Below are positions 10,083 through 63,441 of a stretch of 64,000 bases of DNA, one piece after another; the stretch's first letter is position 1; the number at the start of each line of letters is the position of its first letter. The notes beneath the pieces were generated by a model that saw only the letters and a program-made list of their open reading frames with translations, ran no database searches and was not told the origin of the DNA. The translations under genes and the position numbers were made by a program. Source of the DNA: Minisyncoccota bacterium (GTDB taxonomy: Bacteria > Patescibacteriota > Minisyncoccia > Phycocordibacterales > UBA9973); the NCBI GenBank assembly GCA_028718635.1, contig JAQULK010000001.1:152626-216625 (forward strand). Direction: 5' to 3'.

Positions 10083-12329
10083 ATGTTGAAAAATCAACCT
10101 GCCCGCCCTCCTAAGTCAGGAGCAGGCGGGGGAAGTATCTTTAAATTACATAAACCTTTTGAGCCAGCGGGGGATCAGCCAGTGGCTATCAGAGCGCTTG
10201 TGCAAGGTCTGTCTAAGGGAATGAAAAAGCAAACATTACTAGGAGCCACCGGCACAGGCAAGACTTTTACTATGGCAAATGTCATAGCTCAATATAACAA
10301 ACCAACTTTGGTAATAGCTCACAACAAAACCCTTGCCGCCCAGTTGGCCCAAGAATTTCGTGAATTTTTTCCAGATTCCGCAGTGCATTATTTTGTTTCT
10401 TATTATGATTATTATCAACCAGAAGCCTACATGCCTGCATCGGATACTTATATTGAAAAAGATGCCTCTATCAATAAAGAAATAGACATACTTCGCCATG
10501 CTTCCACGCAAGCGCTTTTAACAAGACGAGATGTGATTATAGTTGCCTCGGTTTCTTGTATTTATGGTTTGGGTTCTCCGGAAGAATATGAAAAAGTTAA
10601 TTTAAAACTTGAAATTGGTATGACGATGGACAGATTGACCTTAATGAAGAAATTAATTCAAATTCATTTTGAACGTACCAATGCAGATCTTACTCCTGGA
10701 ACTTTTCGTTCCATCGGTTCGCGGGTGGAATTTATGCCAGTTTCGGAAAGTATAATGTACCAAGTTGAAATGCAGGGCGGGAGAATTTCCAAAATAACAA
10801 AAGTTGATCCAGTTTCTTCTATTATAATTTCTGAAGAAAAGAATATTTTTATTTTCCCAGCAAAACATTTTATTACTGAAGATGCAAAAAAGAAAAAAGC
10901 GCTTATAGAAATTAAAAAAGAGCTAGCACAACAGCTAAAAAAATTTGAAAAAGAAGGGAAACTTTTAGAGGCTGAACGTATAAAAAGAAGAACTAATTAT
11001 GATTTGGCGATGATAAAAGAAGCTGGTTATTGCAACGGCATAGAAAATTATTCTAGGCACTTATCAGGGAAAAAAGAAGGCGAACCGCCAGAAACATTGC
11101 TTTCCTATTTCCCTAAGACTGGTTTTCTTACGATTATTGATGAATCGCATGTCACAATTCCACAACTACAAGGAATGTACGCAGGAGATGCTTCAAGAAA
11201 AAACACTTTAGTAGAATATGGATTTAGACTACCCTCCGCAAAAGATAACAGACCTTTAAAATTCAATGAGTTTGAAAATAGAATATATAATTCTATTTAT
11301 ACTTCCGCTACACCTGCAAAATTTGAGAAATCAGAAAGTAATCAAATAGTGGAACAAATTATTCGTCCGACAGGGCTTGTGGACCCAGAGACAATAGTGC
11401 GACCAGTTTCCGAAGGCGCATTTCCTCCCCTCCTTAACAAGGAGGGGAATGAGGGGAGGTTCTTAATTAATTCACCTCACCCCAACCCTCTCCTTAGTAA
11501 GGAGAGGGGGAATAACTACCCTGGCCAGATTCAAGATTTTATTCAAGAAACAGAAAAAACAATTGCAAAAGGTTTCAGGGTTCTAGCGACGACGTTGACA
11601 AAAAAAATGGCAGAGGATCTTTCTGTTTATTTAAAGGACAAAAAGATCAAAGCAGAATATCTACACAGTGATGTAAAAACGATAGACAGGATAAAAATTT
11701 TAACCCAATTCCGCAAAGGCGAATTTGATGTTTTAGTTGGCGTAAATTTACTTCGTGAAGGGTTGGATTTGCCAGAAGTTGCTCTGATTGGAATTCTAGA
11801 TGCCGACAAGGCAGGTTTTTTACGATCTGAAACATCTTTAATTCAAACGATTGGCCGTGCGGCTCGCAATAGTGAGGGTAAGGTTATTCTTTATGCCGAC
11901 ATTATGACTCCCGCGATGGATTATGCCCTAAAAGAAACTGCTCGTCGCAGAAATATTCAGCTTGCTTACAACAAAAAACATGGCATTACCCCAAAAACAA
12001 TTATGAAAAAGATAAAGGATATCACCGAAGAAATGGAAAGCGAACATGGGAAAGTTGTAAACGCCGAGCTCCAGCTTGATTTGGAAGTTTTTAAGCGCGC
12101 TTATGCGAAAGAATTTAAAAAAGAAAAGAAACAAAATCGGAAAATACCGAACACCAGCTTGGGGCAGTCTTATTTGTCTGATGAAGAGATAGGCAATTTA
12201 ATCTATGAAAAAATAATAAAAATGAAAGAAAAAGAAATGAACAAGGCAGTCAAAGAGTTAGATTTCGAGACTGCGGCGATACTAAGAGACGAGATCGGAG
12301 TTTTGCGAATGCGTACAGAAAAAAAATAG
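10083..12329 (+). CDS. uvrB: Excinuclease ABC subunit B
   Basis: GATGTGKTFTMA Walker A, helicase motifs, beta-hairpin region and a C-terminal UVR domain. Contains an in-frame insertion of about 32 aa between IVRP and GQIQDF. Confidence 0.95.
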   Translation: MLKNQPARPPKSGAGGGSIFKLHKPFEPAGDQPVAIRALVQGLSKGMKKQTLLGATGTGKTFTMANVIAQYNKPTLVIAHNKTLAAQLAQEFREFFPDSAVHYFVSYYDYYQPEAYMPASDTYIEKDASINKEIDILRHASTQALLTRRDVIIVASVSCIYGLGSPEEYEKVNLKLEIGMTMDRLTLMKKLIQIHFERTNADLTPGTFRSIGSRVEFMPVSESIMYQVEMQGGRISKITKVDPVSSIIISEEKNIFIFPAKHFITEDAKKKKALIEIKKELAQQLKKFEKEGKLLEAERIKRRTNYDLAMIKEAGYCNGIENYSRHLSGKKEGEPPETLLSYFPKTGFLTIIDESHVTIPQLQGMYAGDASRKNTLVEYGFRLPSAKDNRPLKFNEFENRIYNSIYTSATPAKFEKSESNQIVEQIIRPTGLVDPETIVRPVSEGAFPPLLNKEGNEGRFLINSPHPNPLLSKERGNNYPGQIQDFIQETEKTIAKGFRVLATTLTKKMAEDLSVYLKDKKIKAEYLHSDVKTIDRIKILTQFRKGEFDVLVGVNLLREGLDLPEVALIGILDADKAGFLRSETSLIQTIGRAARNSEGKVILYADIMTPAMDYALKETARRRNIQLAYNKKHGITPKTIMKKIKDITEEMESEHGKVVNAELQLDLEVFKRAYAKEFKKEKKQNRKIPNTSLGQSYLSDEEIGNLIYEKIIKMKEKEMNKAVKELDFETAAILRDEIGVLRMRTEKK
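11420..11515 (+). repeat. Two tandem GC-rich palindromic mini-elements (CCCCTCCTTAACAAGGAGGGG and CCTCACCCCAACCCTCTCCTTAGTAAGGAGAGGGGG) inserted in-frame in uvrB
   Basis: Perfect hairpin palindromes; they encode VSEGAFPPLLNKEGNEGRFLINSPHPNPLLSKERGNNYP, which is absent from canonical UvrB between RP and GQI. Confidence 0.8.
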
Positions 12330-12487
12330 ACTTTTTAGTTTTTTGTTGTATACTGTTTCTAATTTAATATTAAAAGAAAGTCATTGACACCCCCTATGAG
12401 TAACGGCGGGTGTATTGGATATTTTATACAAAAAAAATGAAAAATGACCCCGAAGGAAAGAGTACTTCCTACGGGGCAGGAAAAAAT

Positions 12488-15226: not shown

Positions 15227-16519
15227 ATGACGAATGAAACTCTAAAAAAATTAAAACTGCCAGATAAGCCCGGTGTATATTTTTTCTTAAAAAATAAGAA
15301 AATTTTATACATCGGAAAAGCGACCTCTCTTCGAGACCGCACCAAAAGCTATTTCAGCAAGGACTTGATAAATACCCGAGGTCCGCTTGTTTTAGATATG
15401 GTTTTTAAATCGGACAATATAAAATGGGAAGCCACCGATTCTGTTTTAGAAGCTCTTATTTTAGAAGCTAATTTAATAAAAAAATATCAGCCTTATTACA
15501 ATACAAGAGAAAAAGATGATAAGAGTTTCAATTATGTCTGCATCACAAGGGAGAAATTGCCAAGAGTATTAGTAGTTAGAGGCCGAGTTTTAAAAAATTA
15601 TAAAGGAAGTATCTTTGGCCCGTATACTAGCGGTACCCAATTGCATGAGGCGTTAAAAATCTTACGCAGAATTTTTCCTTTTATTGATGACAAATCGAGT
15701 AAAAAACAAAACTATGAATTTTATAAACAGCTTGGACTGACTCCAGACGCATCATCTCCGAGTGAAATTTATTTGGATAATATAAAATATTTGAAACTTT
15801 TCTTTAAAGGCAAAAAGAAAGATATCATCCGAGATTTGAAAAAAAAGATGATGCAAAAAGCCAAAGAGGGAGAATTTGAAAAGGCCGGAGAAGTTAAAAG
15901 GCAAATTTTTGCGCTGAAACACATCAATGATATTGCGCTTATAAAAAATAGCTTCGCAGATAATAAAATTTTTGGTCCTGCGCCCTCCTTTGGGCGCATT
16001 TCTGGGAGCAAAGCGGGACCCTCGGACACAAAAATTTTATTATCTGCTTTGCTATTTCGCATTGAGGCTTATGACATAGCGCACATGGGAGGCAAAAATA
16101 TGGTTGGGGTGATGACAGTTTTGGAAAACGACGAAGCAGTAAAGAGTGAGTACAGAAAATTCAAAATTAAGACTCAGAATAATGTAAATGATACCGGCGC
16201 ACTCGCGGAAGTTTTAGAAAGAAGGTTGATGCATAAAGAATGGGCATTTCCAGATTTAATTGTGGTGGATGGCGGTATGGCGCAAATTAATGCCGCCAAA
16301 AGTGTTTTAAAAAAAATGGGTTTAAACATACCCGTAGTTTCTGTTGTTAAAGATGAACACCATAAACCGAAAGCCATAATGGGGGACAATCCACGCCACG
16401 GCAGGGCAAGAGATTTTGGATTAAAATATAAAAGAGAAATTCTACTAGCGAACAGCGAAGCACACCGATTTGCCATCAGTTATCATAAAAATATGAGGAA
16501 TAAGAATTTCTTGATTTAG
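15227..16519 (+). CDS. uvrC: Excinuclease ABC subunit C (short form, about 430 aa, lacking C-terminal HhH region)
   Basis: N-terminal GIY-YIG domain (PGVYFFLKNKKILYIGKATSLRDR) and a C-terminal RNase H-like endonuclease domain (VVDGGMAQINAA...). Confidence 0.85.
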   Translation: MTNETLKKLKLPDKPGVYFFLKNKKILYIGKATSLRDRTKSYFSKDLINTRGPLVLDMVFKSDNIKWEATDSVLEALILEANLIKKYQPYYNTREKDDKSFNYVCITREKLPRVLVVRGRVLKNYKGSIFGPYTSGTQLHEALKILRRIFPFIDDKSSKKQNYEFYKQLGLTPDASSPSEIYLDNIKYLKLFFKGKKKDIIRDLKKKMMQKAKEGEFEKAGEVKRQIFALKHINDIALIKNSFADNKIFGPAPSFGRISGSKAGPSDTKILLSALLFRIEAYDIAHMGGKNMVGVMTVLENDEAVKSEYRKFKIKTQNNVNDTGALAEVLERRLMHKEWAFPDLIVVDGGMAQINAAKSVLKKMGLNIPVVSVVKDEHHKPKAIMGDNPRHGRARDFGLKYKREILLANSEAHRFAISYHKNMRNKNFLI

Positions 16520-16544: not shown

Positions 16545-18293
16545 ATGAATTCCGAAACGCGGGTCTGCCAAAATTGCAAAAAAGATTTCACGATAGAACC
16601 AGAAGATTTTTCTTTTTATGAGAAACTAAAAGTGCCAGCGCCCACTTGGTGTCCGGACTGCAGATTTGTACGCAAACTCACTTTTATTAATGAACGATCT
16701 TTATATAAAGAAACTTGCGGTAATTGCAAAAAATCAATAATTTCAATGTATAGTCCAGAGAGCGGTATTTCTTCTTGGTGTATCAAATGCCACTTGAGCG
16801 ATGTCTGGGATGCGCGCGATTATGGCAGGGAATATGATTTTTCGAAGACATTTTTTGAGCAGTTTAAAGAATTAAAATACAATATTCCTCACAGAGCGCT
16901 TGATCAAAATGAACGCAACGGAGAAGGCTGTGAATATTCAAATTTATGCTTTGCGAACAAAGATGTCTATTTATCTTTTAATATTGTGGGTTCTGAGCAT
17001 ATAAAATATTCTAATAATGTTTTAAAACGAAATAAAAATTGTTTGGATTCTATGATTATTAAAGCCAACGATAGAGGATACGAGCTGGTACAAGCCAGCA
17101 ACAATTACAACTCGACTTTTTTAATAGAAAGTGATCAGTGTGTGGATTCACATTTCCTTTATGATTGTTCAAATTGCGTAAAATGTTGTTTATCATGTAA
17201 TCTTCGCAATAAAAGTAATGTTTTTAAAAATCAACAATTATCTAAAGAGAAATATGAAGAAGCAGTTACAAATTTGAAATTAGAAACATATTCAGGACAA
17301 ATAAAGGCTAAGGATATTTTTAGGGATTTAGCAAAAAATGCTATTCATAAACATGCGCACATTAAAAATTCAGTAAATGTAGTTGGGGATTTTGTGGAAA
17401 ATTCAAAAAATGTTTATCACTGCTATTGTGTGGCTGATGCGGAAAATGTTAAATATGTTTTTTTTAGTGCCAATGCTATGAAAGATAGCCAAGATGTTGT
17501 GTCATGTGGAAAGATTGAAGAATGTTATGAATTTACTTTAGGAGGAAGAGGTTCCAATCGAGTAGTTTTATGTCTTAGTTGTGGAGGAGGGAATAATAAT
17601 TTGTTTTATTGTGATAATGTTAGAAGTAGTTCTAATTGCTTTGGTTGTGTGAATTTAATTAAGAAACAATATTGTATATTTAATAAGCAATATTCAAAAG
17701 AAGAATATTTCGAATTGTTGTCGAAAATTATGAAACATATGAATGAGATGCCGTATGTGGATGCGCTTGGAAGGGAATATGTTTTTGGTGAATTTTTTCC
17801 TACAGAGATTTCTCCTTTTGCTTATAATGAAACTCGAGCATTTGAAGAATGTCCACTTTCAAAAGAAGAAGTGCTTGCTTTTGGTTATAAATGGAAGGAA
17901 ATAGAAGCCAAAGCCTATGTTCCAACAATAAAAGGAGATGCTATTCCTGATAGCATTAAAGATGTTGAGGATACAATTTGCGACGAAGTTATCGAGTGTC
18001 CCAATAAAGGTAAAGTAGAGACGCGATGCACTTCAGCCTATAAAATATTACCGGATGAGCTTTCTTTTTATCGACAAATGAATCTGCCGATACCTAGATA
18101 TTGTCCGAATTGTAGATACCACCAGCGTTTAGCTTGGAAAAATCCTTTTCATTTTTATAAACGAGAGTGTATGTGTGAATTGCAGAATCATCAACACAAA
18201 GGAAAGTGTCTAAATAAATTTGAAACTATGTATGCTTCTGATCGACCAGAGATAATTTATTGCAAAGAATGTTATCAGGCAGAAATATATTAG
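16545..18293 (+). CDS. Cys-rich protein of unknown function (paralogue 1 of a two-member family in this window)
   Basis: 582 aa. N-terminal CQNCKKDFTIEPEDFSFYEKLKVPAPTWCPDCR and C-terminal MNLPIPRYCPNCR zinc-ribbon-like modules, plus internal C.GC.NL...YCI.NKQYSKEEY repeats. Full-length homology to the ORF at 51882..53585. Confidence 0.7.
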   Translation: MNSETRVCQNCKKDFTIEPEDFSFYEKLKVPAPTWCPDCRFVRKLTFINERSLYKETCGNCKKSIISMYSPESGISSWCIKCHLSDVWDARDYGREYDFSKTFFEQFKELKYNIPHRALDQNERNGEGCEYSNLCFANKDVYLSFNIVGSEHIKYSNNVLKRNKNCLDSMIIKANDRGYELVQASNNYNSTFLIESDQCVDSHFLYDCSNCVKCCLSCNLRNKSNVFKNQQLSKEKYEEAVTNLKLETYSGQIKAKDIFRDLAKNAIHKHAHIKNSVNVVGDFVENSKNVYHCYCVADAENVKYVFFSANAMKDSQDVVSCGKIEECYEFTLGGRGSNRVVLCLSCGGGNNNLFYCDNVRSSSNCFGCVNLIKKQYCIFNKQYSKEEYFELLSKIMKHMNEMPYVDALGREYVFGEFFPTEISPFAYNETRAFEECPLSKEEVLAFGYKWKEIEAKAYVPTIKGDAIPDSIKDVEDTICDEVIECPNKGKVETRCTSAYKILPDELSFYRQMNLPIPRYCPNCRYHQRLAWKNPFHFYKRECMCELQNHQHKGKCLNKFETMYASDRPEIIYCKECYQAEIY

Positions 18294-18332: not shown

Positions 18333-18818
18333 ATGAAAAAGGAAAATCAACAAGAAAATATTTTAATATTACACAATATCCGAAGCGTGGAAAACGTCGG
18401 GGCGATGTTTCGCACGGCTGATGCGGCGGGAATAAACAAAATTTATTTGTCGGGCTACACCCCAACTCCGCTTGATCGTTTTGGCAGAAAGAGAAGGGAT
18501 TTAGCTAAGTCTGCGCTCGGAGCGGAAGAATATATAACTTGGGAATATAAAAAAAGCTTGCCCGCCATTTTGCGAAGCTTAAGGCGGGAGAAATATTTAA
18601 TTATTGGAATAGAGCAGGATAAAAAATCGGTTGATTATAAAAAGGTAAAATTACATAATAAAAATGTTTTTATCGTAGGAACGGAAGTGACAGGCATACC
18701 TAAAAGTATTTTAAAAAAATGTGATGTAATTGCTGAAATTCCAATGCGAGGCAAAAAAGAATCGTTAAATGTTTCCGTGGCACTAGGAATAGCGCTCTTC
18801 GGGATTCTAAAATTATAG
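18333..18818 (+). CDS. SpoU/TrmH-family RNA 2'-O-methyltransferase
   Basis: ILILHNIRSVENVGAMFRTADAAGI... typical SPOUT methyltransferase motifs. Confidence 0.8.
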   Translation: MKKENQQENILILHNIRSVENVGAMFRTADAAGINKIYLSGYTPTPLDRFGRKRRDLAKSALGAEEYITWEYKKSLPAILRSLRREKYLIIGIEQDKKSVDYKKVKLHNKNVFIVGTEVTGIPKSILKKCDVIAEIPMRGKKESLNVSVALGIALFGILKL

Positions 18819-18857
18819 AATCAAAATTTTTGCCGGTACGGATTTTTTGAAGCTTAA

Positions 18858-18925
18858 AAAATCCTGAAGTTGGCTCGCCGTCGCTCGCCAAACCCCTTAA
18901 AAACTTTATTCTCTAATTTTAGAAT
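18858..18925 (+). repeat. Intergenic repeat family R1 (CGGTACGGATTTTTTGAAGCTTAAAAAATCCTGAAGTT...GGCTCGCC...AAACCCCT), copy 1; copy 2 at 41197..41265
   Basis: 38-bp identical core containing a perfect 9-bp-stem hairpin GGATTTTTT-GAAGCTT-AAAAAATCC, with similar flanks; both copies lie immediately 3' of genes. Confidence 0.7.
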
Positions 18926-18954
18926 CCAGAAATAAAATAAATATAAAATTTAGA

Positions 18955-19020
18955 AAGCCTTGCGCAGGCTGACGAGCCGAGCAGTTCGCTGGCGCACCAG
19001 CGCCAGATAGATTGCTTTAT
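18955..19020 (+). repeat. Intergenic repeat family R2 (CCTTGCGCAGG...GACGAGC.GAGCAGTTCGCTGGC-hairpin-CCAGATAGATTGCTTT), copy 1; inverted copy at 20869..20960
   Basis: Collinear similarity after reverse complement. The central hairpin differs in sequence (CTGGCGCACCAGCGCCAG vs CTGGCAAAGCTTTGCCAG) but remains a palindrome in both copies. Confidence 0.65.
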
Positions 19021-19037
19021 AAGTTTTGATATTTATT

Positions 19038-19943
19038 TTATTTCTGATGCACGGAGCAAAAATGCGCGCTGCGGCCGTTTATTATTTTTCTAATTATTGT
19101 GCCTTTACAACCTTTTTTTCTGCATTTTTCTCCTGTGCGTCTATAAGCTTCATGATGCAGTTGGAATTTTCCGGGCAGGCCATAAATATTTTTGTAATCT
19201 GACATTGAGTCTCCGCCGAAATCTATGCCTTTCGCGAGTGTTTCTTTGATGGCTTTGAATATCAATTTAATTTCTGGCTTTTTGAGCGTGGAAACTTTTC
19301 TCTCCGGATGCACTCCGGCGCGCCAAAGTATTTCATCTGAATAAATATTACCAATGCCGGCAATAATTCTTTGATCCATCAAGACTGTCTTAATTTTCCC
19401 ATTTTGTTTTTTAAAAATTTGTAATTCGAAATTCGTAATTGTAAATTGTTTCTCTAACGGTTCCGGTCCGATATTATTCAGATGTTTACTACCTGCCCCG
19501 TAGGAAGTAATCTTTCCTTCGGGGTCGTGGGCAACGTTAGTATCTAATAAAGTAATTTTTCCGAATTTACGCATATCTGAAAAAATTAAATAATGTTTGC
19601 TTGTCCCGCCATGGCGTGGGTTAGATAAAGTGAAAACCACATGCGCAAATTTAATTTTTGGATCTTTGCCGTAAAATAAATAACCGGTCATCTTCATATG
19701 AACCAAGATGGTTTTACCTTCGGACAAGTTTATCAGGATATTTTTTGCACGTCTTTCGGCTGATATAATTTTCTTATTTAAAACTTCCTTTTTAAAATTT
19801 CTGAAAAATTTTGGATTTGCCACGCTGTCTCTTTTGCGCTTGTCTTTCGTCGCCAAATCAGTCCAAACGTCCTTTATTACAAGGCCTAGGACAGTCTTTT
19901 TGAGACCTCTTGTAGTTGTTTCTACTTCTGGTAATTCAGGCAT
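19038..19943 (-). CDS. mutM: Formamidopyrimidine-DNA glycosylase
   Basis: N-terminal MPELPEVE catalytic motif, H2TH region, and a C-terminal CxxC...CxxC zinc finger. Contains a 29-bp GC-rich palindrome in-frame (PEGKITSYGAG). Confidence 0.9.
   Translation of the reverse strand: MPELPEVETTTRGLKKTVLGLVIKDVWTDLATKDKRKRDSVANPKFFRNFKKEVLNKKIISAERRAKNILINLSEGKTILVHMKMTGYLFYGKDPKIKFAHVVFTLSNPRHGGTSKHYLIFSDMRKFGKITLLDTNVAHDPEGKITSYGAGSKHLNNIGPEPLEKQFTITNFELQIFKKQNGKIKTVLMDQRIIAGIGNIYSDEILWRAGVHPERKVSTLKKPEIKLIFKAIKETLAKGIDFGGDSMSDYKNIYGLPGKFQLHHEAYRRTGEKCRKKGCKGTIIRKIINGRSAHFCSVHQK
19496..19524 (+). repeat. 29-bp palindromic element (CCCCGTAGGAAGTAATCTTTCCTTCGGGG) in-frame in mutM; a near-identical inverted copy lies at 12448..12476 just upstream of uvrA
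   Basis: The two copies differ at 2 of 29 positions after reverse-complementing one; each forms an 11-bp stem hairpin. Confidence 0.75.
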
Positions 19944-19947
19944 GGTT

Positions 19948-20514
19948 TTATTTGCCTCCTAAAATTTTTAAAGCTTCACGGATTTTAGTATTAGTATTCG
20001 CATCAGGAGACACTTTTTTCAATGCTTCGCGCGCTTCATTTTGAGAATATCCTAGGGATTTAAGTGCTTCTAAAACATCCAGCTCTTCCTGTAGAGAACT
20101 TCCTTCCAGTTCAGTTCCTATTTTGTCGCGCAATTCAATCACGATTCTTTCCGCAGTCTTTTTGCCGATGCCGGATATTTTTGTGAGGTAGGAAGTGTCA
20201 TTCATGCCTATGGCTTTCCGCAATGTTTCGATCGAAGCAATTCCTAAAATAGCTAAAGCCGACTTTGGCCCTATGCCCGATACTCCAATGAGCATTTCGA
20301 AAAATTCTAATTCTGAACGTTCTAAAAATCCATACAAATCCAAAGCATCTTCTCGCACGTGCGTATGTGTCCAGAGTGTCATCTCGTCGCCTACTTTTTT
20401 TGTTTTAGACAATACATCTGGGGAGACATTTATTTTATATCCAACCCCGCCCGTTTCCACGATTAAAAATTTATCCGCTTTAAATATAATTTTTCCTTTA
20501 ATGCTTCCGATCAT
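19948..20514 (-). CDS. ruvA: Holliday junction branch migration protein RuvA
   Basis: MIGSIKGKI...VETGGVGY N-terminal OB domain, HhH motifs and a C-terminal domain. Confidence 0.9.
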   Translation of the reverse strand: MIGSIKGKIIFKADKFLIVETGGVGYKINVSPDVLSKTKKVGDEMTLWTHTHVREDALDLYGFLERSELEFFEMLIGVSGIGPKSALAILGIASIETLRKAIGMNDTSYLTKISGIGKKTAERIVIELRDKIGTELEGSSLQEELDVLEALKSLGYSQNEAREALKKVSPDANTNTKIREALKILGGK

Positions 20515-20851: not shown

Positions 20852-21008
20852 TTCATCAAAAATTTATATTTTAAAAAGCAATCTATCTGGCAAAGCTTTG
20901 CCAGCGAACTGCTCGTCGATCAAGAAAATAATAGAAAGAGTACTTTCTTTATTTTCTAATCTCCTGCGCAAGGCTTTTAAAAATACAAATTTTTGACCAC
21001 CATATATT

Positions 21009-26945: not shown

Positions 26946-29201
26946 ATGAAAAAATATATGTCGGTTTTGTTTGTTTTTGCTTTATTCTTAACTTTATTAT
27001 TAAGTTTTAACGCTAAACCTGTGAGTGCAGCTAATTGTGCGTCTGGCGATTTATTTAATTCGGTAACTGGCCAAGCTTGTATTAGCACAAGTTTAGTTGT
27101 TTCTTGTCCAACTGGTGATATATTTAGTACAACAACAGGCAAGCGTTGTAATACATGGACAGAAAATACAGGAAATAATTCTATCCTAGATACTTTATTT
27201 AAACGACAACTTGCAATGGGCTCAAAAGGAGAAGATGTTAAAGTCGTCCAACAGATTTTAAAAGATGCTAATTTTCTTTCTGGAAAAGTTGATGGTATTT
27301 ATGGTCCCATAACTAAAAGCGCAGTGATGAAATATCAAGCAGAAAATAGTATTACTACAACAGGAGTAGTGGGTTCTGATACTTTAGAAAAAATAAAACT
27401 TACACCATGGCAAAAGATGTGTCCTTTGATTAATAGTACTTATGGAGTTTCTTATTCTTGTTCTTCAGTTGCGCCTGCTTGTGTATCTGAGGGTGGAAGT
27501 TTGGGCGCGGTAGTACCGGGAAATATTCCGCCTCCATCTTGCTGTCCAGGATTAATGGCTTATGCTCCTCGTGATATTGCAGGAACTTTTGGTACTTGTG
27601 TGAAATCTACCAACCAAACTCTAATAATTTCTGGAATAAGCGGACCAACTGTTTTAGATGTTGGGCAAACTGGCACTTGGACTGTAATGGCGAATGATTC
27701 AGAGCAAGGAGTTTTGTCTTATAATGTGAGTTGGGGAGACATAGCAAGTAGTGCTAGTGCTATGAGCGCGAACTTTGTTTCAACAGCCACCTTTTCTCAT
27801 ATTTATAATAATGTAGGAATTTACACGGCTAAATTTACCGTAAAGAATAGTCAAGGGCTTACTGCTGAAACAACCATTAACGTGAATGTGGTTGATTCTA
27901 CTTCCCCTGTTCTGTCTAAATATAAATGTTCAGAAACTGGTTGTGTTCAAGATGATGCTAACGGAACTTTTACATCTTCTACTTGTGATAATTCTTGTAA
28001 TGTCGGGGTAGTTCCAAAGTACAAGTGTGCTAATACCGGTTGTGTCCAAGATAATGTTAACGGAACTTTTACATCTTCTACTTGTAATAATATGTGTTCA
28101 CCATCTTGTGTTAAAGCAACATCATGCCCTCAGGGAATAATTTGTGGAGCTTGGACTGATGGGTGTGGGGGGTATATAGGTTGTGGAAACTGCAATTTTG
28201 GATATTATTGCGGCGAGCATCAAAAAGTATGTGAACGTCAATTTCCTTCTGGTCCACGCACTATAAGCACTTCAGGAGGTTCAAATTTAAAAGTTGTAAG
28301 TAATCTAGCGGGGATAAATTGTGGACAAGGAGGGACTCAATGTAGAGCAACTTTTAATGAATCTGATACTGTTATATTGACAGCAACACCTAGTACGGGC
28401 TATTCATTTATGGGATGGTCTGGGTATACGAATGCTCAATACCCATTACTTCCAGGGTTTGGAAGTGATTGTGCCACTAAAAGTGGAACATGCACAATTA
28501 CAATGTCGACATTAATGACTGATGTGAATGTTGGAGCGTCAGTAGAACTGACACCCGGAACTACTTATTATGATTTGGTTGTAAAAAATGGGTGGGGAAA
28601 GATTACCGGTAATAAAGGAACGATAGAGTGCGAAGGTGCCGGAAATAATAAAATATGCAGACAGAGATATAATGTTGGGGATTTGGTAACTCTTATAGCT
28701 CAAGTAACAGATCCAATTTATACATTTAAAAGGTGGACTGCCGGATGTAGTTGCGAGAATGGTTGTTCTCAGGAGCCGTCTGGATGTTCTACAAACGGCA
28801 CTTGTTCTTTAACTATTCCTCAATCAACACAAAGTGATCTAATAGCCGGAATCGATGCTTGTTTTGTCGCGCCGGCGAATTATAAAAAAATAACCGTTAG
28901 CGCGCAGTTTGTTGGGGGGTATGTATCTGATAGTATTGGGAAAATGCAATGCGGGGTAAAAGCAGGTTCAAGTATGTGGGCATGCGGTTATGATTATTCT
29001 CCAACAAGTGTGATAAAATTTACCGCTCATCCAGAAGCCGGTTATAAATTCAATGGGTGGTCGGGATATAGGAATAGTCAGGGTTTGGTCGGAGGGTTTG
29101 GAAGTGATTGTGCAGACTTGTCGGCAGGTACTTGCACGGTAAATATGAGCGCGATGACTATTTCTAGTGTTAATATAGGTTGGTCTTTCGCAAGACAATA
29201 A
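26946..29201 (+). CDS. Secreted Cys-rich repeat protein with peptidoglycan-binding domain and Listeria-Bacteroides (InlB B-repeat-like) repeats
   Basis: Signal peptide MKKYMSVLFVFALFLTLLLSFNAKPVSA; PG_binding_1-like segment (KGEDVKVVQQILK...VDGIYGPITKSAVMKYQ); tandem 35-aa Cys repeats (KYKC..TGCVQD..NGTFTSSTC.N.C); two GY.F.GWSGY...GFGSDCA...GTCT modules. Confidence 0.7.
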   Translation: MKKYMSVLFVFALFLTLLLSFNAKPVSAANCASGDLFNSVTGQACISTSLVVSCPTGDIFSTTTGKRCNTWTENTGNNSILDTLFKRQLAMGSKGEDVKVVQQILKDANFLSGKVDGIYGPITKSAVMKYQAENSITTTGVVGSDTLEKIKLTPWQKMCPLINSTYGVSYSCSSVAPACVSEGGSLGAVVPGNIPPPSCCPGLMAYAPRDIAGTFGTCVKSTNQTLIISGISGPTVLDVGQTGTWTVMANDSEQGVLSYNVSWGDIASSASAMSANFVSTATFSHIYNNVGIYTAKFTVKNSQGLTAETTINVNVVDSTSPVLSKYKCSETGCVQDDANGTFTSSTCDNSCNVGVVPKYKCANTGCVQDNVNGTFTSSTCNNMCSPSCVKATSCPQGIICGAWTDGCGGYIGCGNCNFGYYCGEHQKVCERQFPSGPRTISTSGGSNLKVVSNLAGINCGQGGTQCRATFNESDTVILTATPSTGYSFMGWSGYTNAQYPLLPGFGSDCATKSGTCTITMSTLMTDVNVGASVELTPGTTYYDLVVKNGWGKITGNKGTIECEGAGNNKICRQRYNVGDLVTLIAQVTDPIYTFKRWTAGCSCENGCSQEPSGCSTNGTCSLTIPQSTQSDLIAGIDACFVAPANYKKITVSAQFVGGYVSDSIGKMQCGVKAGSSMWACGYDYSPTSVIKFTAHPEAGYKFNGWSGYRNSQGLVGGFGSDCADLSAGTCTVNMSAMTISSVNIGWSFARQ

Positions 29202-29225: not shown

Positions 29226-31310
29226 TTAATGCTCTATTTTAGTGGTGATAGTTTTCTTCGTAAATGGTTCGGTATAACCAAACAAATATCGTGCCAAGAA
29301 GATGAGAACGAGGATCAGAACGATTAGCAAGAGCCAGCCGAATAGATTTGTCGGGAAGAATCCAGCCCAGAAAGCGTTTGCTCCGAGGGGTACAACAATT
29401 TCATTTTCTGGATTACTCCAAACTTGTGCGGAAACATTTGCGCTTACTGATTGGTTTTGACCGGAAGGATCAGTGTAGTTCAAAGTTGCAGGGAAATTTA
29501 AGTTCGTTCCAGCAGGAATATTTTCTCGCACTCGAGTCCTGATGGTTACTGTCCCTTTGCCATTTGCTTTGAGTGTTCCTAGATTGAAGATTAAGGTATT
29601 GCCAGAGATAATCGGATTATTTGGATTAGAAGACAGATAATCTACTTCAAAAGGAAGATTTATTTGCAGATTAAGATTGGTAATTGACCCTGTGCCAATA
29701 TTTTGATAACTCACAGTGTAATTAATCTCATCTCCTGGGCGCGGTCTGGTGTTGTCTATGGTAGGAACTATTGGTTGATTGCGATCGATAGAAGAAGTGA
29801 TAAGCACGAGCGAAGTCGGAGTAGGTTTTGGACCAACGGGATTTCGAACACTTATTGTTTCTGAATCAGTAGCAGATCCAAAACTATTGCTACAGGTAAG
29901 GGTATAAGATTTACTACTCGTTAGTGATCCAGTGAAAAAACTTCCCGGACCAATACTTTTTGCTCCTGCCCAGCCGACAGATCCACCGCTTGCATAACAA
30001 GAAGTTGCATTGGTGGTAATCCAGCGAACAGTGGCAGTTCCATTATAAGGAACACTCACTTTATCTGAATAGACTGTTACCGTAGGTTGGTTATTTACAG
30101 CCCTATAGATACAAGGCAATACCCCTCTGTAATTTATAGCGTTAGGGTCTTGGCATACCTGAATATAATTATTGTAGGTACAAGGCAATACTCCCCCATA
30201 ATTATTAGCATTTCTGTCTAAGCAAGTTTGCTGTACTTGATTCACATATACCGTCGCAGAAGCGGTGGCACTCAAGCCGTTCGTTCCGTAACAAGTAATG
30301 CTGTAGGTGGTAGTGACATTTGGCACGACAATTCCAGAACCGGAAGTGGCATTACTGTTCATCCAGTAACCGGAACAGGAAGTAGCATTGGTAGAATACC
30401 AGGTCAAGGTAGAGTTTTGTCCAGATTGGATACTTGAAGGGCTAGCGTACAGAGTAACGGTAGGATTTGCGTTTTGGTATCTGCAAGGCAATGAACCACC
30501 GTAGTTTATCGCATTCGGATCTTGGCAAGTCTGTTGTGCTTGATTCACGTACACAGTAGCTTGTGCTGTAGCGCTCAAGCCGCTGGCGCCGTAACAAGTG
30601 ATACTGTATGTGGTGGTAATATTTGGTACGACAATACCGAAACCATTCGTAGCGGTACTTGAAGTCCAGTATGCGGAACAGGAAGTTGCGTTTGTGGAAT
30701 TCCAGGTCAAATTAGAGTTTTGTCCAGATTGGATAGTCGTCGGATTAGCATTCAAGGTAACAGTGGGTTGCTGAACTGGGCAAGGTGCAGTTGTATATGA
30801 TTGACTAGATGGTCCAGAACAATAGGCTCCTCCGTTAGCTGGAGCTGGATTAGTACAAGTGCGAGTTTGAGTGCCGGTGTATCCACATTGAGTAGACTGA
30901 GGACTCCAATCACTCCAGCCTCCGTTTATGGGAGTTGGGGTTGGGGTACAAGCGGGAGTGGTAATAGATTTAATACCACCAGTGTTAGTGCCGTAATTAT
31001 TTGTTACTATGAGTTCGAAATAATAGGTGGTACTTGGAGACAGGTTAGCGACAAATTGTTCAATTGGAAAAGTTCCTTCTGTATAAAAATATTTTGTCTC
31101 AGTTACCATTCCTCCACCGTTTTGCACGGTAGTAAAATCTGGACTGTATATAAACCTAGCATAGGCAGGAGGGGTGCCGGTAGTTACGTCACCAACAAAG
31201 GTTGCACTATTGCAAGTCAAAGCGGAAGCCTTAGATGGAATTATAAAAAAGCTAAAGAGTGCAAAGACACTCAATATCAACCCGATCGACAATTTTATTT
31301 TTTTATTCAT
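29226..31310 (-). CDS. Surface protein with signal peptide, Ig-like tandem repeats, DUF11-like domain and C-terminal TM anchor
   Basis: Signal peptide MNKKIKLSIGLILSVFALFSFFIIPSKASA; three copies of an 80-aa repeat (QPTVT..A.P..IQSGQNS.LTW.STNATSC..YW...); DUF11-like segment; C-terminal hydrophobic helix. Tandem DNA repeats of about 250 bp lie inside the gene. Confidence 0.7.
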   Translation of the reverse strand: MNKKIKLSIGLILSVFALFSFFIIPSKASALTCNSATFVGDVTTGTPPAYARFIYSPDFTTVQNGGGMVTETKYFYTEGTFPIEQFVANLSPSTTYYFELIVTNNYGTNTGGIKSITTPACTPTPTPINGGWSDWSPQSTQCGYTGTQTRTCTNPAPANGGAYCSGPSSQSYTTAPCPVQQPTVTLNANPTTIQSGQNSNLTWNSTNATSCSAYWTSSTATNGFGIVVPNITTTYSITCYGASGLSATAQATVYVNQAQQTCQDPNAINYGGSLPCRYQNANPTVTLYASPSSIQSGQNSTLTWYSTNATSCSGYWMNSNATSGSGIVVPNVTTTYSITCYGTNGLSATASATVYVNQVQQTCLDRNANNYGGVLPCTYNNYIQVCQDPNAINYRGVLPCIYRAVNNQPTVTVYSDKVSVPYNGTATVRWITTNATSCYASGGSVGWAGAKSIGPGSFFTGSLTSSKSYTLTCSNSFGSATDSETISVRNPVGPKPTPTSLVLITSSIDRNQPIVPTIDNTRPRPGDEINYTVSYQNIGTGSITNLNLQINLPFEVDYLSSNPNNPIISGNTLIFNLGTLKANGKGTVTIRTRVRENIPAGTNLNFPATLNYTDPSGQNQSVSANVSAQVWSNPENEIVVPLGANAFWAGFFPTNLFGWLLLIVLILVLIFLARYLFGYTEPFTKKTITTKIEH
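29880..30700. repeat. Tandem ~250-bp direct repeats (2 full plus 1 partial) within the surface protein gene 29226..31310
   Basis: Long near-identical DNA blocks (e.g. ...CAAGGCAATGAACCACCGTAGTTTATCGCATTCGGATCTTGGCAAGTCTG... vs ...CAAGGCAATACTCCCCCATAATTATTAGCATTTCTGTCTAAGCAAGTTTG...) encoding the repeated QPTVT...TW.STNATSC module. Confidence 0.6.
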
Positions 31311-40720: not shown

Positions 40721-41179
40721 ATGAATACAGGGAGATTTTTGGGAATTGATTTTGGGACAAAAAGGATAGGAGTGGCTATTTCAGACGAAAATCACACCTT
40801 GGCTTTTCCAAAAGAAATCGTTTTGAATAACCCAAATACTTTTAAAAAGCTCGGCGAGATAATAAAAAAAGAAAAAGTGGCAGAAATCGTGGTCGGAGAA
40901 TCTGTGGATTTTTCAGGGAAATTAAATGCTTTATCCGGTAGGATTGAAGTTTTTATTTTGGAATTGAAAGAGCATTTCAAATTGCCGGTGCATAAGCAAA
41001 AAGAATTCTTAACTTCAGTGGAGGCTCGCCGATATGAAGATCTTGGCGGGCAAGCTAGAAAATCTAATGCTCATAGCAGATTGAAGCAAATAAAGTCTGG
41101 CCGAATAGATGCCTCCGCGGCGGCTCTCATCTTACAGCGATATTTAGATAAAATAAATATCGTAAATCATGAAACATAA
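40721..41179 (+). CDS. ruvX: Putative pre-16S rRNA nuclease / Holliday junction resolvase-like protein YqgF (RuvX)
   Basis: FLGIDFGTKRIGVAISDE N-terminal RNase H-like motif. Start set at the ATG at 40721 rather than the ORF-track start at 40598. Confidence 0.8.
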   Translation: MNTGRFLGIDFGTKRIGVAISDENHTLAFPKEIVLNNPNTFKKLGEIIKKEKVAEIVVGESVDFSGKLNALSGRIEVFILELKEHFKLPVHKQKEFLTSVEARRYEDLGGQARKSNAHSRLKQIKSGRIDASAAALILQRYLDKINIVNHET

Positions 41180-41302
41180 ACTTTTCTTCGGTACGGATTT
41201 TTTGAAGCTTAAAAAATCCTGAAGTTCTCGGCTCGCCAGCCTCGAAACCCCTGCGAAAAGTTATGTTTCGTGATTTAGAGACAAATAGGTTATAATATTT
41301 GT

Positions 41303-50391: not shown

Positions 50392-51033
50392 ATGAAAATC
50401 AGAAAAATAACTCAAATACTCATCGTGGTGTCGGTTATCGCTATTATTTTTATCCTTTTTCGTTTGGATTTGTCGGGAGTAGAAACTCCTGGTTATTTGA
50501 TCTGGAATCTTTTTTTAGCTTGGATACCTTACATAATTTCTTCGTATTTTATTAAAAAGGAAACATCAATAAGTATTTTTATACCATTGTTTATTTTCTG
50601 GCTTTTGTTTTTCCCAAATGCTCCATATTTAGTGACTGATGTTACGCACATAGTCTCGAGTCCTGCGTCCTTCGTGTGGTATGACAGCTTGCTCTTCTTT
50701 TTCTTCGGATGGGTCGGTTTGCTTTTGGGAATGGTTTCTCTTTATCGTATTCATCAATATTTCAAAAATCATTTAAGCAATTTTATTTCTGAACTGATAA
50801 TTTTTGTTATTTGTTTTGTTTCGAGTTTCGGAGTGTATTTGGGAAGATTCGAAAGATGGAATAGCTGGGATCTTTTTTTAAACCCATTTAATTTAATTAA
50901 GCAGTCAGTTAATATTTCAGCTGACCTCATTAATGCAGGCGCCCCATTAATTTTTGTCGGCATATTTACTATATTCATGTACTCAGTTTATAAAACAGTA
51001 TATATTCTGATTGCAGATAACTCTGAATTATAA
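50392..51033 (+). CDS. DUF1361-like integral membrane protein
   Basis: WNLFLAWIPY and FFPNAPYLVTD motifs in a 5-6 TM protein. Confidence 0.5.
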   Translation: MKIRKITQILIVVSVIAIIFILFRLDLSGVETPGYLIWNLFLAWIPYIISSYFIKKETSISIFIPLFIFWLLFFPNAPYLVTDVTHIVSSPASFVWYDSLLFFFFGWVGLLLGMVSLYRIHQYFKNHLSNFISELIIFVICFVSSFGVYLGRFERWNSWDLFLNPFNLIKQSVNISADLINAGAPLIFVGIFTIFMYSVYKTVYILIADNSEL

Positions 51034-51797
51034 TGCCAGCAATAACAAATTCAAAAATAAAAGTTTTATACGAGGATGCAAATATCCTGGCCATAGACAA
51101 ACCGTCTGGAATTTTGGTGCACCCTGACGAAAGAAGTAAAGAGAAAACAATTTTAGATTTATTTATAAAAAAATATCTGAAATTAGAGATAGTGCATAGA
51201 CTTGATAGAGAGACTTCCGGAGTTCTCTTGTTGGCTAAAAATAAAAAAGCTCACGAATTTCTAAAAAAACAATTTCAAAATCGGGAGATAAAAAAAGTTT
51301 ATCATGCTATCGTTTCCGGCAATGTAAAAAATGAGAGGGGGATAATAAATAAGCCAATCGGGCGAAGCCCGAAAGATTTTCGCCGTTATTCGGCTGGCAG
51401 AGGAGCCCGGGGAGAGATGCGAGAAGCGATAACCCAGTATAGGGTTTTGAAACGTTTTGTTGCTAAGGCGAAGCTTCAAGAAATTTTACATCCCCGAGGG
51501 TCCCACTCCGCAGGAGAAGGGCGCAGGGGTGGAAAATTACTTGAAGCGAAGCCACAAAGATTTACCTATCTGGAAATAAGACCAAAAACTGGCCGGACGC
51601 ATCAGATCAGGGTGCATATGAAATATTTGAATCATCCCATTGTGTGCGATTCGCTTTATAATCCTGATAATCCTTGCCCGAAAGGCATTTTTCGAGTGGC
51701 CCTGCATGCCAAATCCATAGAATTTAAGAACTTAAAAGGGGAAACTATAAAAGTGGAATCCGCAATTCCAAAAGAGTTTGAGAAGGTGGTAAAATGA
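51033..51797 (+). CDS. RluA-family pseudouridine synthase
   Basis: HRLDRETSGVLLLAKN catalytic motif and TGRTHQIRVH. Contains a GC-rich, roughly 30-aa in-frame insertion. Confidence 0.85.
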   Translation: MPAITNSKIKVLYEDANILAIDKPSGILVHPDERSKEKTILDLFIKKYLKLEIVHRLDRETSGVLLLAKNKKAHEFLKKQFQNREIKKVYHAIVSGNVKNERGIINKPIGRSPKDFRRYSAGRGARGEMREAITQYRVLKRFVAKAKLQEILHPRGSHSAGEGRRGGKLLEAKPQRFTYLEIRPKTGRTHQIRVHMKYLNHPIVCDSLYNPDNPCPKGIFRVALHAKSIEFKNLKGETIKVESAIPKEFEKVVK

Positions 51798-53684: not shown

Positions 53685-54095
53685 ATGGCAGGAAATAAAA
53701 TCAATAAAATAAAATTCACTCCGGTAGATATCGAAGAGCGAAAGAAGCTTAATTTCAAGGCTGGAGATACTGTTTCTGTTTCGTCAAAGATTATAGATGA
53801 AAAAGGCAAGTCTCGTTTTCAAGTTTTTGAGGGTATCGTGCTTGCTAGAAAACATGGCACTGAAGCGGGTGCTACTTTTACCGTCAGAAAGGTTTCTTCT
53901 GGTGTTGGAGTAGAAAGAATTTTTCCGTTATATTCTCCAATGATAGGGGAAATCAAAATAACTAAAAGGTCTCGCGCTCGCAGGTCAAAACTTTACTATA
54001 TCCGTACCAAGGCAGTCAAAGATGTTCGCAAAAAAATGCGTTCCATCGCTCATTCAGAGGAAGCAAACGATGCAGTAGAAAAAGTTGCAGAATAA
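53685..54095 (+). CDS. rplS: 50S ribosomal protein L19
   Basis: Typical L19 core (FKAGDTVSV...RFQVFEGIV...) with a basic C-terminal extension. Confidence 0.9.
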   Translation: MAGNKINKIKFTPVDIEERKKLNFKAGDTVSVSSKIIDEKGKSRFQVFEGIVLARKHGTEAGATFTVRKVSSGVGVERIFPLYSPMIGEIKITKRSRARRSKLYYIRTKAVKDVRKKMRSIAHSEEANDAVEKVAE

Positions 54096-54327: not shown

Positions 54328-54849
54328 ATGCCAATAGTTAAATGCAAATTATGTTCAAAAGAATTTTATGGTAAACCATTTTTTCTAAAGAATGGTTGGG
54401 CTAAGTATTGTTCTACCGCATGTCAGTACAAAGCTAGACGAAGTGGAAAATTTTTACCCTGCGAGATTTGTGGAGAAAAGACCTATAAACAGTTAAAAAG
54501 ACTAAAAAAATCTAAAAGTGGTAAATTCTTTTGTAGCAAGTCTTGCCAAACAGTGTGGAGAAATCAAGAATTCATAGGAATTAAACATCATAATTGGAAA
54601 ACTGGGTTATCTGCTTACAGAAGCGTATTGGCGAGAAATAAGATTCCTAAATTTTGCAATTTATGTAGAACAAAAGATGAAAGAGTTCTTTCTACCCATC
54701 ATATTGATAAGAATAGAAACAATAATCATGTATCAAATCTTGCATGGCTTTGTAACAATTGTCATTTTTTAGTTCACCATTATAAAGATGAATCCTTGAA
54801 ATTTAAAAAAAATCTGTCAGTATATAGAATACGAGGTAAATCCTCATAA
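54328..54849 (+). CDS. HNH endonuclease with N-terminal zinc-ribbon repeats (paralogue of 39763..40275)
   Basis: CRTKDERVLSTHHIDKNRNNNHVSNLAWLCNNCH HNH motif; flanked by tRNA-Leu (105 nt upstream) and tRNA-His (4 nt downstream). Confidence 0.8.
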   Translation: MPIVKCKLCSKEFYGKPFFLKNGWAKYCSTACQYKARRSGKFLPCEICGEKTYKQLKRLKKSKSGKFFCSKSCQTVWRNQEFIGIKHHNWKTGLSAYRSVLARNKIPKFCNLCRTKDERVLSTHHIDKNRNNNHVSNLAWLCNNCHFLVHHYKDESLKFKKNLSVYRIRGKSS

Positions 54850-54852
54850 CAT

Positions 54853-54925
54853 GGTGCCCGTAGTTTAGTGGTAAAACTTCGGCTTGTGGAGCCGATATCG
54901 AGAGTTCAATTCTCTCCGGGCACCC
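54853..54925 (+). tRNA. tRNA-His (anticodon GUG) with extra 5' G(-1)
   Basis: G-1 plus acceptor GTGCCCG/CGGGCAC, anticodon loop TTGTGGA, T arm GAGTTCAATTCTC. Confidence 0.8.
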
Positions 54926-63372: not shown

Positions 63373-63441
63373 AAAGACCTCACCCCAGCCCTCTCCTTGT
63401 TAAGGAGAGGGGGGTTCATTTGACTATTTGAGCAAAAAGAG

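Follow-up and report, generated by a model that had tools for sequence, protein, structure and literature searches.

Two genes in a 64,000-nucleotide stretch of DNA from a Minisyncoccota bacterium (contig JAQULK010000001.1 of assembly GCA_028718635.1, positions 152,626 to 216,625 of the forward strand; "the window" below) belong to a very large multigene family that is restricted to the Parcubacteria (Paceibacteria/Minisyncoccia). Members of this family are soluble cytoplasmic proteins of about 580 amino acids (aa), in which a pair of predicted zinc fingers at either end of the chain encloses a duplicated, putative β-solenoid core and an acidic domain. We tentatively read this architecture as that of an adaptor or scaffold.

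Parcubacteria are among the most abundant uncultivated bacteria and have very small genomes, from which much of standard metabolism has been shed. Such genomes nevertheless retain as many as nine or more diverged members of the family, each conserved like the DNA-repair and ribosomal genes beside it, and an array of up to about 14 kb (nine copies in one 13.7-kb locus) would represent roughly 1-2% of a genome of 672-kb size. The gap in knowledge is considerable: the family comprises thousands of clusters at 50% identity, its core is covered by no model in Pfam or NCBIfam, and neither a solved relative nor a paper on the family was found. What can now be provided is a domain map, a set of candidate metal ligands, a division into constant and paralog-specific parts and a ranked list of candidate partners. 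The family also gives the unit composed of zf_Tbcl and a CxxC-x17-CxxC finger, widespread but unstudied, its first larger context.

The two genes of the window are as follows.

16545..18293, + strand: paralog 1 (par1), an open reading frame (ORF) of 582 aa, NCBI MDD5720979.1, "hypothetical protein", 100% identical to P0001
51882..53585, + strand: paralog 2 (par2), 567 aa, NCBI MDD5721016.1, "hypothetical protein", with par1-like architecture; identical with P0121

Both ORFs lie where an earlier note, made from the letters of the window alone, had placed them, and its description of them as full-length homologs belonging to no characterized family has held up. The two proteins align end to end (38% identity, 53% positives, E = 3e-128), and the N-terminal, C-terminal and central motifs that it had pointed out can be read both in the par1/par2 alignment and in an alignment of 30 family members. 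The database records derive from a Candidatus Paceibacterota contig of 671,958 bp in a metagenome-assembled genome (MAG), and a search of six-frame ORFs with a hidden Markov model (HMM) of the family finds just these two copies in the window. No Pfam or NCBIfam model matches either protein at its curated cutoff; the sole matches are sub-threshold ones to treble-clef finger models at the two ends, and no enzyme-family match was found for the pair in Pfam or NCBIfam or, in Pfam, for the 30 aligned members. Sequence searches of the PDB, with a single sequence and with a profile, returned nothing significant, and a Foldseek comparison of the structural model with the PDB gave no match at E<=0.001. 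PADLOC returned 0 matches and PHROGs only matches at E>=0.09, so that neither protein falls into a known anti-phage defense or phage family.

Domain architecture and relatives of the terminal fingers

The architecture was derived from alignments, from an AlphaFold2 model of par1 and from profile-profile comparisons (HHalign). The model has a predicted local distance difference test score (pLDDT) of 82.7 and a predicted template modeling score (pTM) of 0.86. In par1 numbering, the chain can be divided as follows, with all metal ligands to be understood as candidates.

16545..16694, + strand (residues 1-50): ZnA1, predicted treble-clef finger, zf_Tbcl-like; ligands C8, C11, C36, C39; the most constant part of the family
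16695..16829, + strand (residues 51-95): ZnB1, CxxC-x17-CxxC finger; ligands C58, C61, C79, C82
16830..16904, + strand (residues 96-120): conserved aromatic/acidic linker and helix (YDFS..FF.QF..L....P)
16905..17348, + strand (residues 121-268): solenoid module 1 and capping helix; ends in CxxCxxCC, then NLRNK....N..LSKEKY
17349..17750, + strand (residues 269-402): solenoid module 2 and capping helix; ends in FGCVNL....YCIFNKQYSKEEY
17751..17984, + strand (residues 403-480): acidic domain, net charge -9, motif GEFFP.E.S.F.YNE..A
17985..18149, + strand (residues 481-535): ZnA2, second zf_Tbcl-like finger; ligands C485, C495, C520, C523
18150..18290, + strand (residues 536-582): ZnB2, second CxxC-x17-CxxC-type finger; ligands C542, C555, C573, C576

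The proposal that each terminus carries a zinc module is supported, in that each end is a pair of predicted Cys4 fingers and the N-terminal pair is homologous to the C-terminal one (HHalign 99.7%, E 6e-27), as are its constituents ZnA1 and ZnA2 (99.4%, E 2e-21) and ZnB1 and ZnB2 (97.4%, E 1e-11). The middle is duplicated, as had likewise been claimed, with solenoid modules 1 and 2 homologous to one another (99.9%, E 1e-36); negative controls for these internal homologies gave 0.6-11.5%.

In the model, ZnA1 forms a β-hairpin with a knuckle, a helix and a second helix that begins at C36/C39; the secondary structure predicted for ZnA (a hairpin knuckle, a helix and a last pair of ligands at the beginning of a further helix) matches a treble clef. 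Compared directly with the Pfam model zf_Tbcl (PF13451), par1 residues 5-44 score 16.2 bits (E 0.01), short of the gathering cutoff of 24 bits, and only four of the 30 aligned members match this model at E<=0.01. At the profile level, homology to the PF13451 module (CxxC...F.[IF]...[ED]..FY...P..C..CR) is found for both ZnA1 and ZnA2: ZnA1 aligns to the PF13451 part of small stand-alone proteins that carry PF13451 and PF23477 (HHalign 97.9%, E 5e-13), and ZnA2, in which the par1 type has a wider first knuckle (C-x9-C), aligns to the same stand-alone family (97.6%, E 3e-12). The ligand spacing that characterizes PF23477 and TIGR04272 is exact in ZnB1 of par1 (C58-x2-C61-x17-C79-x2-C82, read from the sequence) and in ZnB2 of par2 (C-x2-C-x17-C-x2-C); ZnB2 of the par1 type retains the outer ligands and has a 10-residue His-containing insertion. 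ZnB1 aligns to the PF23477 part of the stand-alone proteins (HHalign 96.1%, E 3.5e-9). By direct scan, the ZnB2 stretch of par2 scores 25.7 bits against PF23477 (zf_Tbcl_2; cutoff 27) and 22.4 bits (E 7.5e-5) against TIGR04272 (cutoff 36), and par1 gave no match to either. Precomputed PF23477.2 hits, which apply E-value thresholds and not the Pfam cutoff, include par2 (P0121) together with many par2 orthologs, and 11 of the 30 aligned members match PF23477 at E<=0.01.

A consensus-style query for the finger pair returned 2,998 matches, the best 120 of which are all 108-186 aa long, all carry PF13451 together with PF23477 and are named either "CxxC-x17-CxxC domain-containing protein" or "zinc-ribbon domain containing protein"; the hosts of these 120 stand-alone proteins are Thermomicrobiales, Dehalococcoidia, Limnocylindrales and cyanobacteria. 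Their profile aligns over both fingers of the N-terminal pair (HHalign 98.7%, E 2e-16) and of the C-terminal pair (98.5%, E 3e-15), against 0.8% for solenoid 1 as a control. Because both finger pairs align to a whole stand-alone protein, each end of the family's chain is one copy of a pre-existing bipartite unit whose long linker has been shortened. The stand-alone PF13451+PF23477 (TIGR04272) proteins, of about 120 aa (roughly 110-145), share with the window family the order of the fingers, the spacing of the ligands and the signature F.I...[DE]..FY...P..C..CR. They differ in that they have a long Gly/Tyr-rich linker between the fingers and nothing else, whereas the window family has a linker of about 18 residues, carries the unit twice and places some 385 residues of solenoid and acidic domain between the two copies. 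On sequence grounds, the stand-alone zf_Tbcl + zf_Tbcl_2 proteins are the closest known relatives, with homology demonstrated for the termini only, and we rate the family as a much enlarged, duplicated and solenoid-bearing form of the CxxC-x17-CxxC domain proteins. Four stand-alone zinc-unit genes that lie on long contigs had no neighbors in common.

Archaeal small proteins with the CxxC-x17-CxxC domain bind zinc as determined by inductively coupled plasma mass spectrometry (PMC12704099). From this finding on homologous domains, and from 16 conserved cysteines arranged in four Cys4 sets, we infer that par1 and par2 bind zinc.

The middle of the chain matches β-solenoids only, and does so as a resemblance of fold class, with a measured periodicity of 12/24 residues that replaces rungs of 20-22 residues estimated by eye. 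Narrow β-solenoids to which it can be likened at this level alone are the ryegrass ice-binding protein (3ULT), an insect antifreeze protein (1M8N), curli CsgA (8C50), bactofilin (2N3D), the left-handed β-helix acyltransferases and the γ-carbonic anhydrases. Pentapeptide-repeat proteins form multi-paralog β-solenoid families, for instance in cyanobacteria, and include the DNA mimics Qnr and MfpA; the window family differs from them in its period of 12 residues, not 5 or 20, in its zinc-finger caps and in an isoelectric point (pI) that is near neutral and not strongly acidic. No Pfam match to bactofilin (PF04519), curlin or pentapeptide models was found in par1, par2 or the 30 aligned members. 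LIM domains (CRP1, 1CTL/1B8T) likewise consist of two successive Cys-rich zinc fingers ending in ...YC..CY, and the corresponding alignment, over residues 520-581, is insignificant. Solenoid 1 closes with a cysteine cluster that reads C208, C211, C214, C215 in par1 and CxxCxxCxxC in par2 and the family consensus; this cluster has no Pro, and its fourth Cys is variable. Neither Fer4 nor Radical_SAM matches par1, par2 or the 30 members at E<=1.

Literature searches on Parcubacteria and the candidate phyla radiation (CPR), PF13451, CxxC-x17-CxxC and β-solenoids did not turn up any account of the family. The fold called "Knotted Solenoid" belongs to a Brevundimonas family, unrelated to the present one, and the sole "cysteine-rich" mention in a preprint on CPR protein families concerns a CAP-domain family.

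Among 145 diverse representatives, the positions with at least 95% conservation are occupied by Cys ligands, aromatics, Pro, Gly and Asn. They include F103, Q106, L110 and P115 in the linker, where residues 103-113 are helical in the model; F366, G367, C368, I378, N380 and Y383 in solenoid 2; and G415, P419, Y427 and N428 in the acidic domain, which has a pLDDT of 86-96 in the full-length model. No catalytic-looking motif occurs among the family-wide conserved positions, although these do include a few polar residues. The C-terminal third modeled alone has a pTM of 0.41, against 0.86 for the full-length chain, which argues that the protein is a single rigid body. The proteins are near neutral (pI about 6.3) and contain 22-44 cysteines each, with a median of 33. 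In 170 members, no hydrophobic stretch of transmembrane grade and no signal peptide was found, and the possibility of a secreted or membrane protein was rejected on the absence of such segments. The notion of secreted effectors of host interaction is disfavored on the same ground, and also by the housekeeping-level conservation of orthologs described below.

Family size, tandem arrays and paralog specificity

Searches with par1 and par2 returned more than 6,029 and more than 7,931 relatives, respectively. Those to which a source gives a name are called "hypothetical protein" and are assigned to Paceibacterota, Nomurabacteria, the Patescibacteria group or Minisyncoccia; the lone other label is an automatic "formylmethanofuran dehydrogenase subunit E". 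An exhaustive profile search, run over 1.84 billion representatives clustered at 50% identity, gave 4,881 matches at E<=1e-3, with 2,067 at E<=1e-30, and the best 150 of the 4,881 are almost all full length (520-612 aa). No relatives were found on IMG/VR viral contigs or in GenBank phage records (INPHARED). The GC content at third codon positions of par1 and par2 lies within about 1.3 standard deviations of that of the window's genes, which speaks against recent transfer, and a mobile, viral or recently transferred origin was rejected given the lack of viral or phage copies and the conserved synteny of orthologs.

Copy numbers come from a search of 83 fetched loci, none longer than about 13.7 kb, in which six-frame ORFs were compared with the family HMM. 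One copy was present in 30 loci, two in 23, three in 15, four in 6, five in 5, six in 2, seven in 1 and nine in 1, so that 53 of the 83 hold at least two, in co-oriented tandem arrays; in the most extreme locus (L017, from a Brennerbacteria MAG), nine copies fill 13.7 kb end to end. Several assemblies are represented by two loci each, with at least 6-7 copies per assembly, and the number of diverged copies per genome ranges from 1-2 to at least 9. Neighboring copies within arrays are 29-54% identical (median 39.5%, 73 pairs), which indicates old paralogs like the window pair and not recent duplicates. The par1 type adjoins five different subgroups, and adjacent copies belong to the same subgroup in only 13 of the 73 pairs. 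As the make-up and order of the arrays differ among genomes, a fixed multi-subunit operon was rejected, and the same variability argues against an operon-encoded complex of fixed stoichiometry.

Where synteny permits a direct comparison, individual orthologs are about as conserved as the housekeeping genes that adjoin them. Between locus L005 and the window, the family gene is 68% identical, UvrC 62% and SpoU 75%; between L009 and the window, the two family orthologs are 63% and 64% identical, RluA 54% and ribosomal protein L19 65%. Orthologs of par2 at 64-80% identity occur in many Paceibacteria. The slot between uvrC and the SpoU gene is also occupied in L051 and L067, there by a member only 43-45% identical to par1, while UvrC (63-64%) and SpoU (74-75%) are as conserved as in L005. 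A divergent member between equally conserved flanks suggests that slots persist and that their occupants are exchanged or diverge in bursts.

To separate constant from specific positions, 90 par1 orthologs were compared with 120 par2 orthologs. In ZnA1, the two groups share the same fixed residue at 48% of positions, and at none (0%) are they fixed for different ones. Positions fixed within each group and different between them are found above all in solenoid 1 (19%), ZnA2 (18%) and the first capping helix (17%). Conservation over the whole chain within the orthologous groups is 0.65-0.83.

Genomic neighborhood and candidate functions

The earlier note had observed that each window copy stands next to a different RNA-modification enzyme, and had drawn from this a shared, undescribed role, possibly that of a metal-binding factor associated with RNA or nucleic acid. 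The neighbors that it named, uvrC and SpoU for par1 and RluA for par2, are those that Pfam identifies. The genes concerned, given here for context only apart from that of L19, are the following.

15227..16519, + strand: uvrC-like gene, upstream of par1; Pfam UvrC_RNaseH_dom E 7e-37, GIY-YIG
18333..18818, + strand: SpoU/TrmH-type methyltransferase, downstream of par1; Pfam SpoU_methylase E 2e-32
51033..51797, + strand: RluA-type pseudouridine synthase, upstream of par2; Pfam PseudoU_synth_2 E 4.5e-35
53685..54095: ribosomal protein L19 gene, identified by Pfam

The spacings reported for par1, 25 nt after uvrC and 39 nt before the methyltransferase gene, are correct, but the argument from them for an operon-like arrangement is weak. 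Half of the gaps between co-directional genes in the window are <=40 nt; with a median co-directional gap of 43 nt and 76% of genes on the + strand, gaps of 25 and 39 nt are ordinary. Scans for promoters and terminators around par1 and par2 stayed at the expectation from shuffled sequence and are uninformative.

The neighborhoods of the family were surveyed across 82 loci (the window and 81 others), in which 187 family genes were marked and all other products were clustered. Recurrent clusters of neighbors were identified by Pfam or by inspection, with the window included in the counts below.

RluA-type synthase: 6 of 82 loci, 4 distinct family sub-clusters nearby
SpoU: 4 of 82 loci, 2 distinct family sub-clusters nearby
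RluA and SpoU combined: 9 of 82 loci, 5 distinct family sub-clusters nearby
UvrC: 4 of 82 loci
L19: 4 of 82 loci
Soluble TraG/VirD4/HerA-like P-loop ATPase: 18 of 82 loci, 12 sub-clusters, 26 family genes within two genes
Hsp70 system (DnaK, GrpE, DnaJ): 18 of 82 loci, 9 sub-clusters nearby

Family genes are inserted at differing points of a dnaK - ATPase - dnaJ block and of the stretch from S9 and grpE to dnaK. The ATPase is itself worth recording: a soluble protein of about 500 aa, TraG/VirD4/TrwB/HerA-like, it stands between dnaK and dnaJ as part of a conserved block in five loci (L010, L045, L049, L065, L079), an unusual partner for an Hsp70 operon, and elsewhere (L047, L050, L053, L081) it follows a pair of genes for a helix-turn-helix-like protein and a Trp-rich membrane protein (c42-c43).

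The reading that we tentatively favor, as plausible yet far from assured, makes the protein a rigid, non-enzymatic scaffold or adaptor, with at least four zinc ions to stabilize it. ZnA1, the invariant N-terminal finger, would dock onto a partner common to all paralogs; paralog-specific surfaces, mainly solenoid 1 and ZnA2, would pick different targets; and each genome would thereby keep a set of specificities. The partner of such an adaptor could be either protein or nucleic acid. Two observations weigh against this proposal. The solenoid regions of the model have a modest pLDDT of 62-77, which leaves the fold class itself provisional, and the extent of conservation over the whole chain leaves room for an unrecognized enzyme. 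A more ambitious version, which we consider possible but doubtful, would place the family at the core of a Parcubacteria-specific cytoplasmic system without counterpart in studied bacteria, for example as adaptors for the dnaK - TraG/HerA-like ATPase - dnaJ block or for the translation and RNA machinery, replacing functions that these bacteria have lost. As yet, no evidence points to a surprising mechanism for the family.

Several other explanations must be weighed against the adaptor reading. The proteins might be clients, cofactors or substrates of the dnaK - TraG/VirD4/HerA-like ATPase - dnaJ block, for instance zinc- or redox-switched holdases of the Hsp33/DnaJ type or cargo of the P-loop ATPase. 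In favor of this, the ATPase and the Hsp70 genes are the most recurrent neighbors, and family genes occur at several points of the grpE...dnaK and dnaK-ATPase-dnaJ stretches (L010, L045, L049, L061, L065, L079). DnaJ and Hsp33 are, moreover, Cys-rich, as the family is. Yet about 70% of loci, the window included, lack these genes, the variable insertion points might reflect no more than a permissive region, the loci are not independent of one another in phylogeny, the counts come without a background rate from complete genomes, and no similarity of sequence or fold to known chaperones was found; we regard a role in proteostasis or translocation as unlikely. Distinctly unlikely, in our estimate, is the original suggestion of a metal-binding RNA or nucleic-acid factor, taken here to work with SpoU/TrmH and RluA, for example as a substrate-recognition subunit, with the paralogs serving different RNA sites. 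Both window copies do abut such enzymes, and in L002, L009, L011 and L032 family genes or arrays stand immediately behind an RluA-type gene: in L002 and L011 a par1 ortholog heads an array of 4-5 genes right after RluA, in L009 the order is RluA, the par1 ortholog (63%), another copy, the par2 ortholog (64%) and L19, and in L032 it is RluA, a par2 ortholog and L19, with a par1 ortholog a few genes on. Other neighbors include RuvX/YqgF, after which the par1 type stands in L001, L006 and L014, a tRNA_bind protein and the ribosomal proteins L19 and S9, and treble-clef fingers with a basic helix (CR..RR) are frequently nucleic-acid binders. Set against this, the low counts of RluA and SpoU loci and of the sub-clusters beside them confine the association to close relatives; the survey shows no recurrent link to RNA-modification genes beyond local synteny, and the shared role that had been proposed is not supported. 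Because orthologs of par1 and par2 occur together in the single L009 array, the two contexts in the window are not independent; in L027, L19 comes immediately after RluA and no family gene intervenes; tight gene spacing is the norm in this genome; and the proteins are near neutral and carry an acidic domain. We infer that the family does not serve SpoU or RluA as a dedicated accessory, and a nucleic-acid-related role is left without specific support.

A DNA-binding regulator or nucleoid-associated protein, whose finger pairs would contact two DNA sites across a rigid solenoid spacer with sites specific to each paralog, would agree with the two homologous finger pairs at opposite ends of the chain, with the scatter of copies among many housekeeping operons and with the conserved arginines that follow the second ZnA knuckle (R40, R43, R524, R528). 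Tandem arrays of up to nine copies are, however, unusual for regulators, as are 580 aa and a near-neutral pI, no DNA-binding family was matched, and the high pTM suggests termini that are packed on the core in place of reaching out, so that we consider this role distinctly improbable. Polymers or cytoskeletal elements in the manner of bactofilins or curli, in which paralogs would co-assemble and the zinc units serve as end caps or junctions, seem highly improbable, since each of the two solenoid modules carries helix and zinc-domain caps, and such capping normally prevents end-to-end growth of solenoids; the composition and order of the arrays differ between genomes, and Pfam gave no bactofilin or curlin match. 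The least credible of these ideas, with very little in its favor in our judgment, is a buffer or store of metal or thiol, engaged in zinc or iron-sulfur handling or redox buffering. The cysteine content speaks for it, as does the conserved CxxCxxCxxC that closes solenoid 1 and comes in addition to the 16 finger ligands, but paralog-specific conservation over the full length and a fixed architecture exceed what a buffer needs, ferredoxin and radical-SAM models found no match, and the core cysteines follow the 12-residue rung pattern expected of structural ladder residues.

Other features of the window

An 87-nt intergenic repeat (76% identical) lies at 18823-18909, right after the SpoU gene, and at 41178-41264, right after RuvX/YqgF, which in relatives (L006, L014, L016, L027) is a site of family genes. 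The predicted fold, with two hairpins, is common to the two copies (z -1.2 and -2.5), and the repeat could represent a small RNA, an element akin to a terminator or the footprint of recombination. Nearby, two inverted-repeat pairs (45 nt, 84%; 30 nt, 80%) at 18939-19022 and 20871-20992 surround fpg-ruvA (19038..20514), the sole minus-strand genes within a long plus-strand run, which suggests a repeat-mediated inversion.

A GC-rich, internally palindromic element of 35 nt (GACCCCGAAGGAAAGAGTACTTCCTACGGGGCAGG) occurs at 12446-12480 (+ strand), in an N-terminal extension of the UvrA ORF, and at 19492-19526, in Fpg on the - strand. The two copies are 97% complementary and are translated in frame as DPEGK[SI]TSYGAG in UvrA and Fpg, resembling the in-frame insertions of palindromic elements in Rickettsia. 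Odd inserts rich in Gly, Pro and Ser are also present in UvrA, UvrC and the RluA-type gene. A perfect, G-rich direct repeat of 37 nt (GGATGGGGTAGTGGGGGAGAAGACGAAGGGGAGGATG) lies at 48097-48133 and 61904-61940, and a second 37-nt family, which is palindromic (ACCTCACCCCA.CCCTCTCCTT..TAAGGAGAGGGGG), is found in both orientations at 11424-11460, 11474-11510 and 63377-63413; the impression is of an AT-rich genome in which several families of short, GC-rich repeats are dispersed.

Between L19 and a tRNA gene (54854-54924), a Cys-rich ORF of 173 aa (54328..54849, + strand) has several CxxC pairs and an HNH-like motif (HHIDKNRNNNHVSNLAWLCNNCHFLVHH), and gave no Pfam match at E<=1e-3. Two large ORFs contain internal tandem repeats. 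In 29229..31310 (- strand), a 296-nt unit is present at 30169-30464 and 30472-30767 (73% identical), with further 50-nt copies; in 26946..29198 (+ strand), a 75-nt unit at 27918-27992 and 28017-28091 (84% identical) encodes a Cys-containing peptide repeat.

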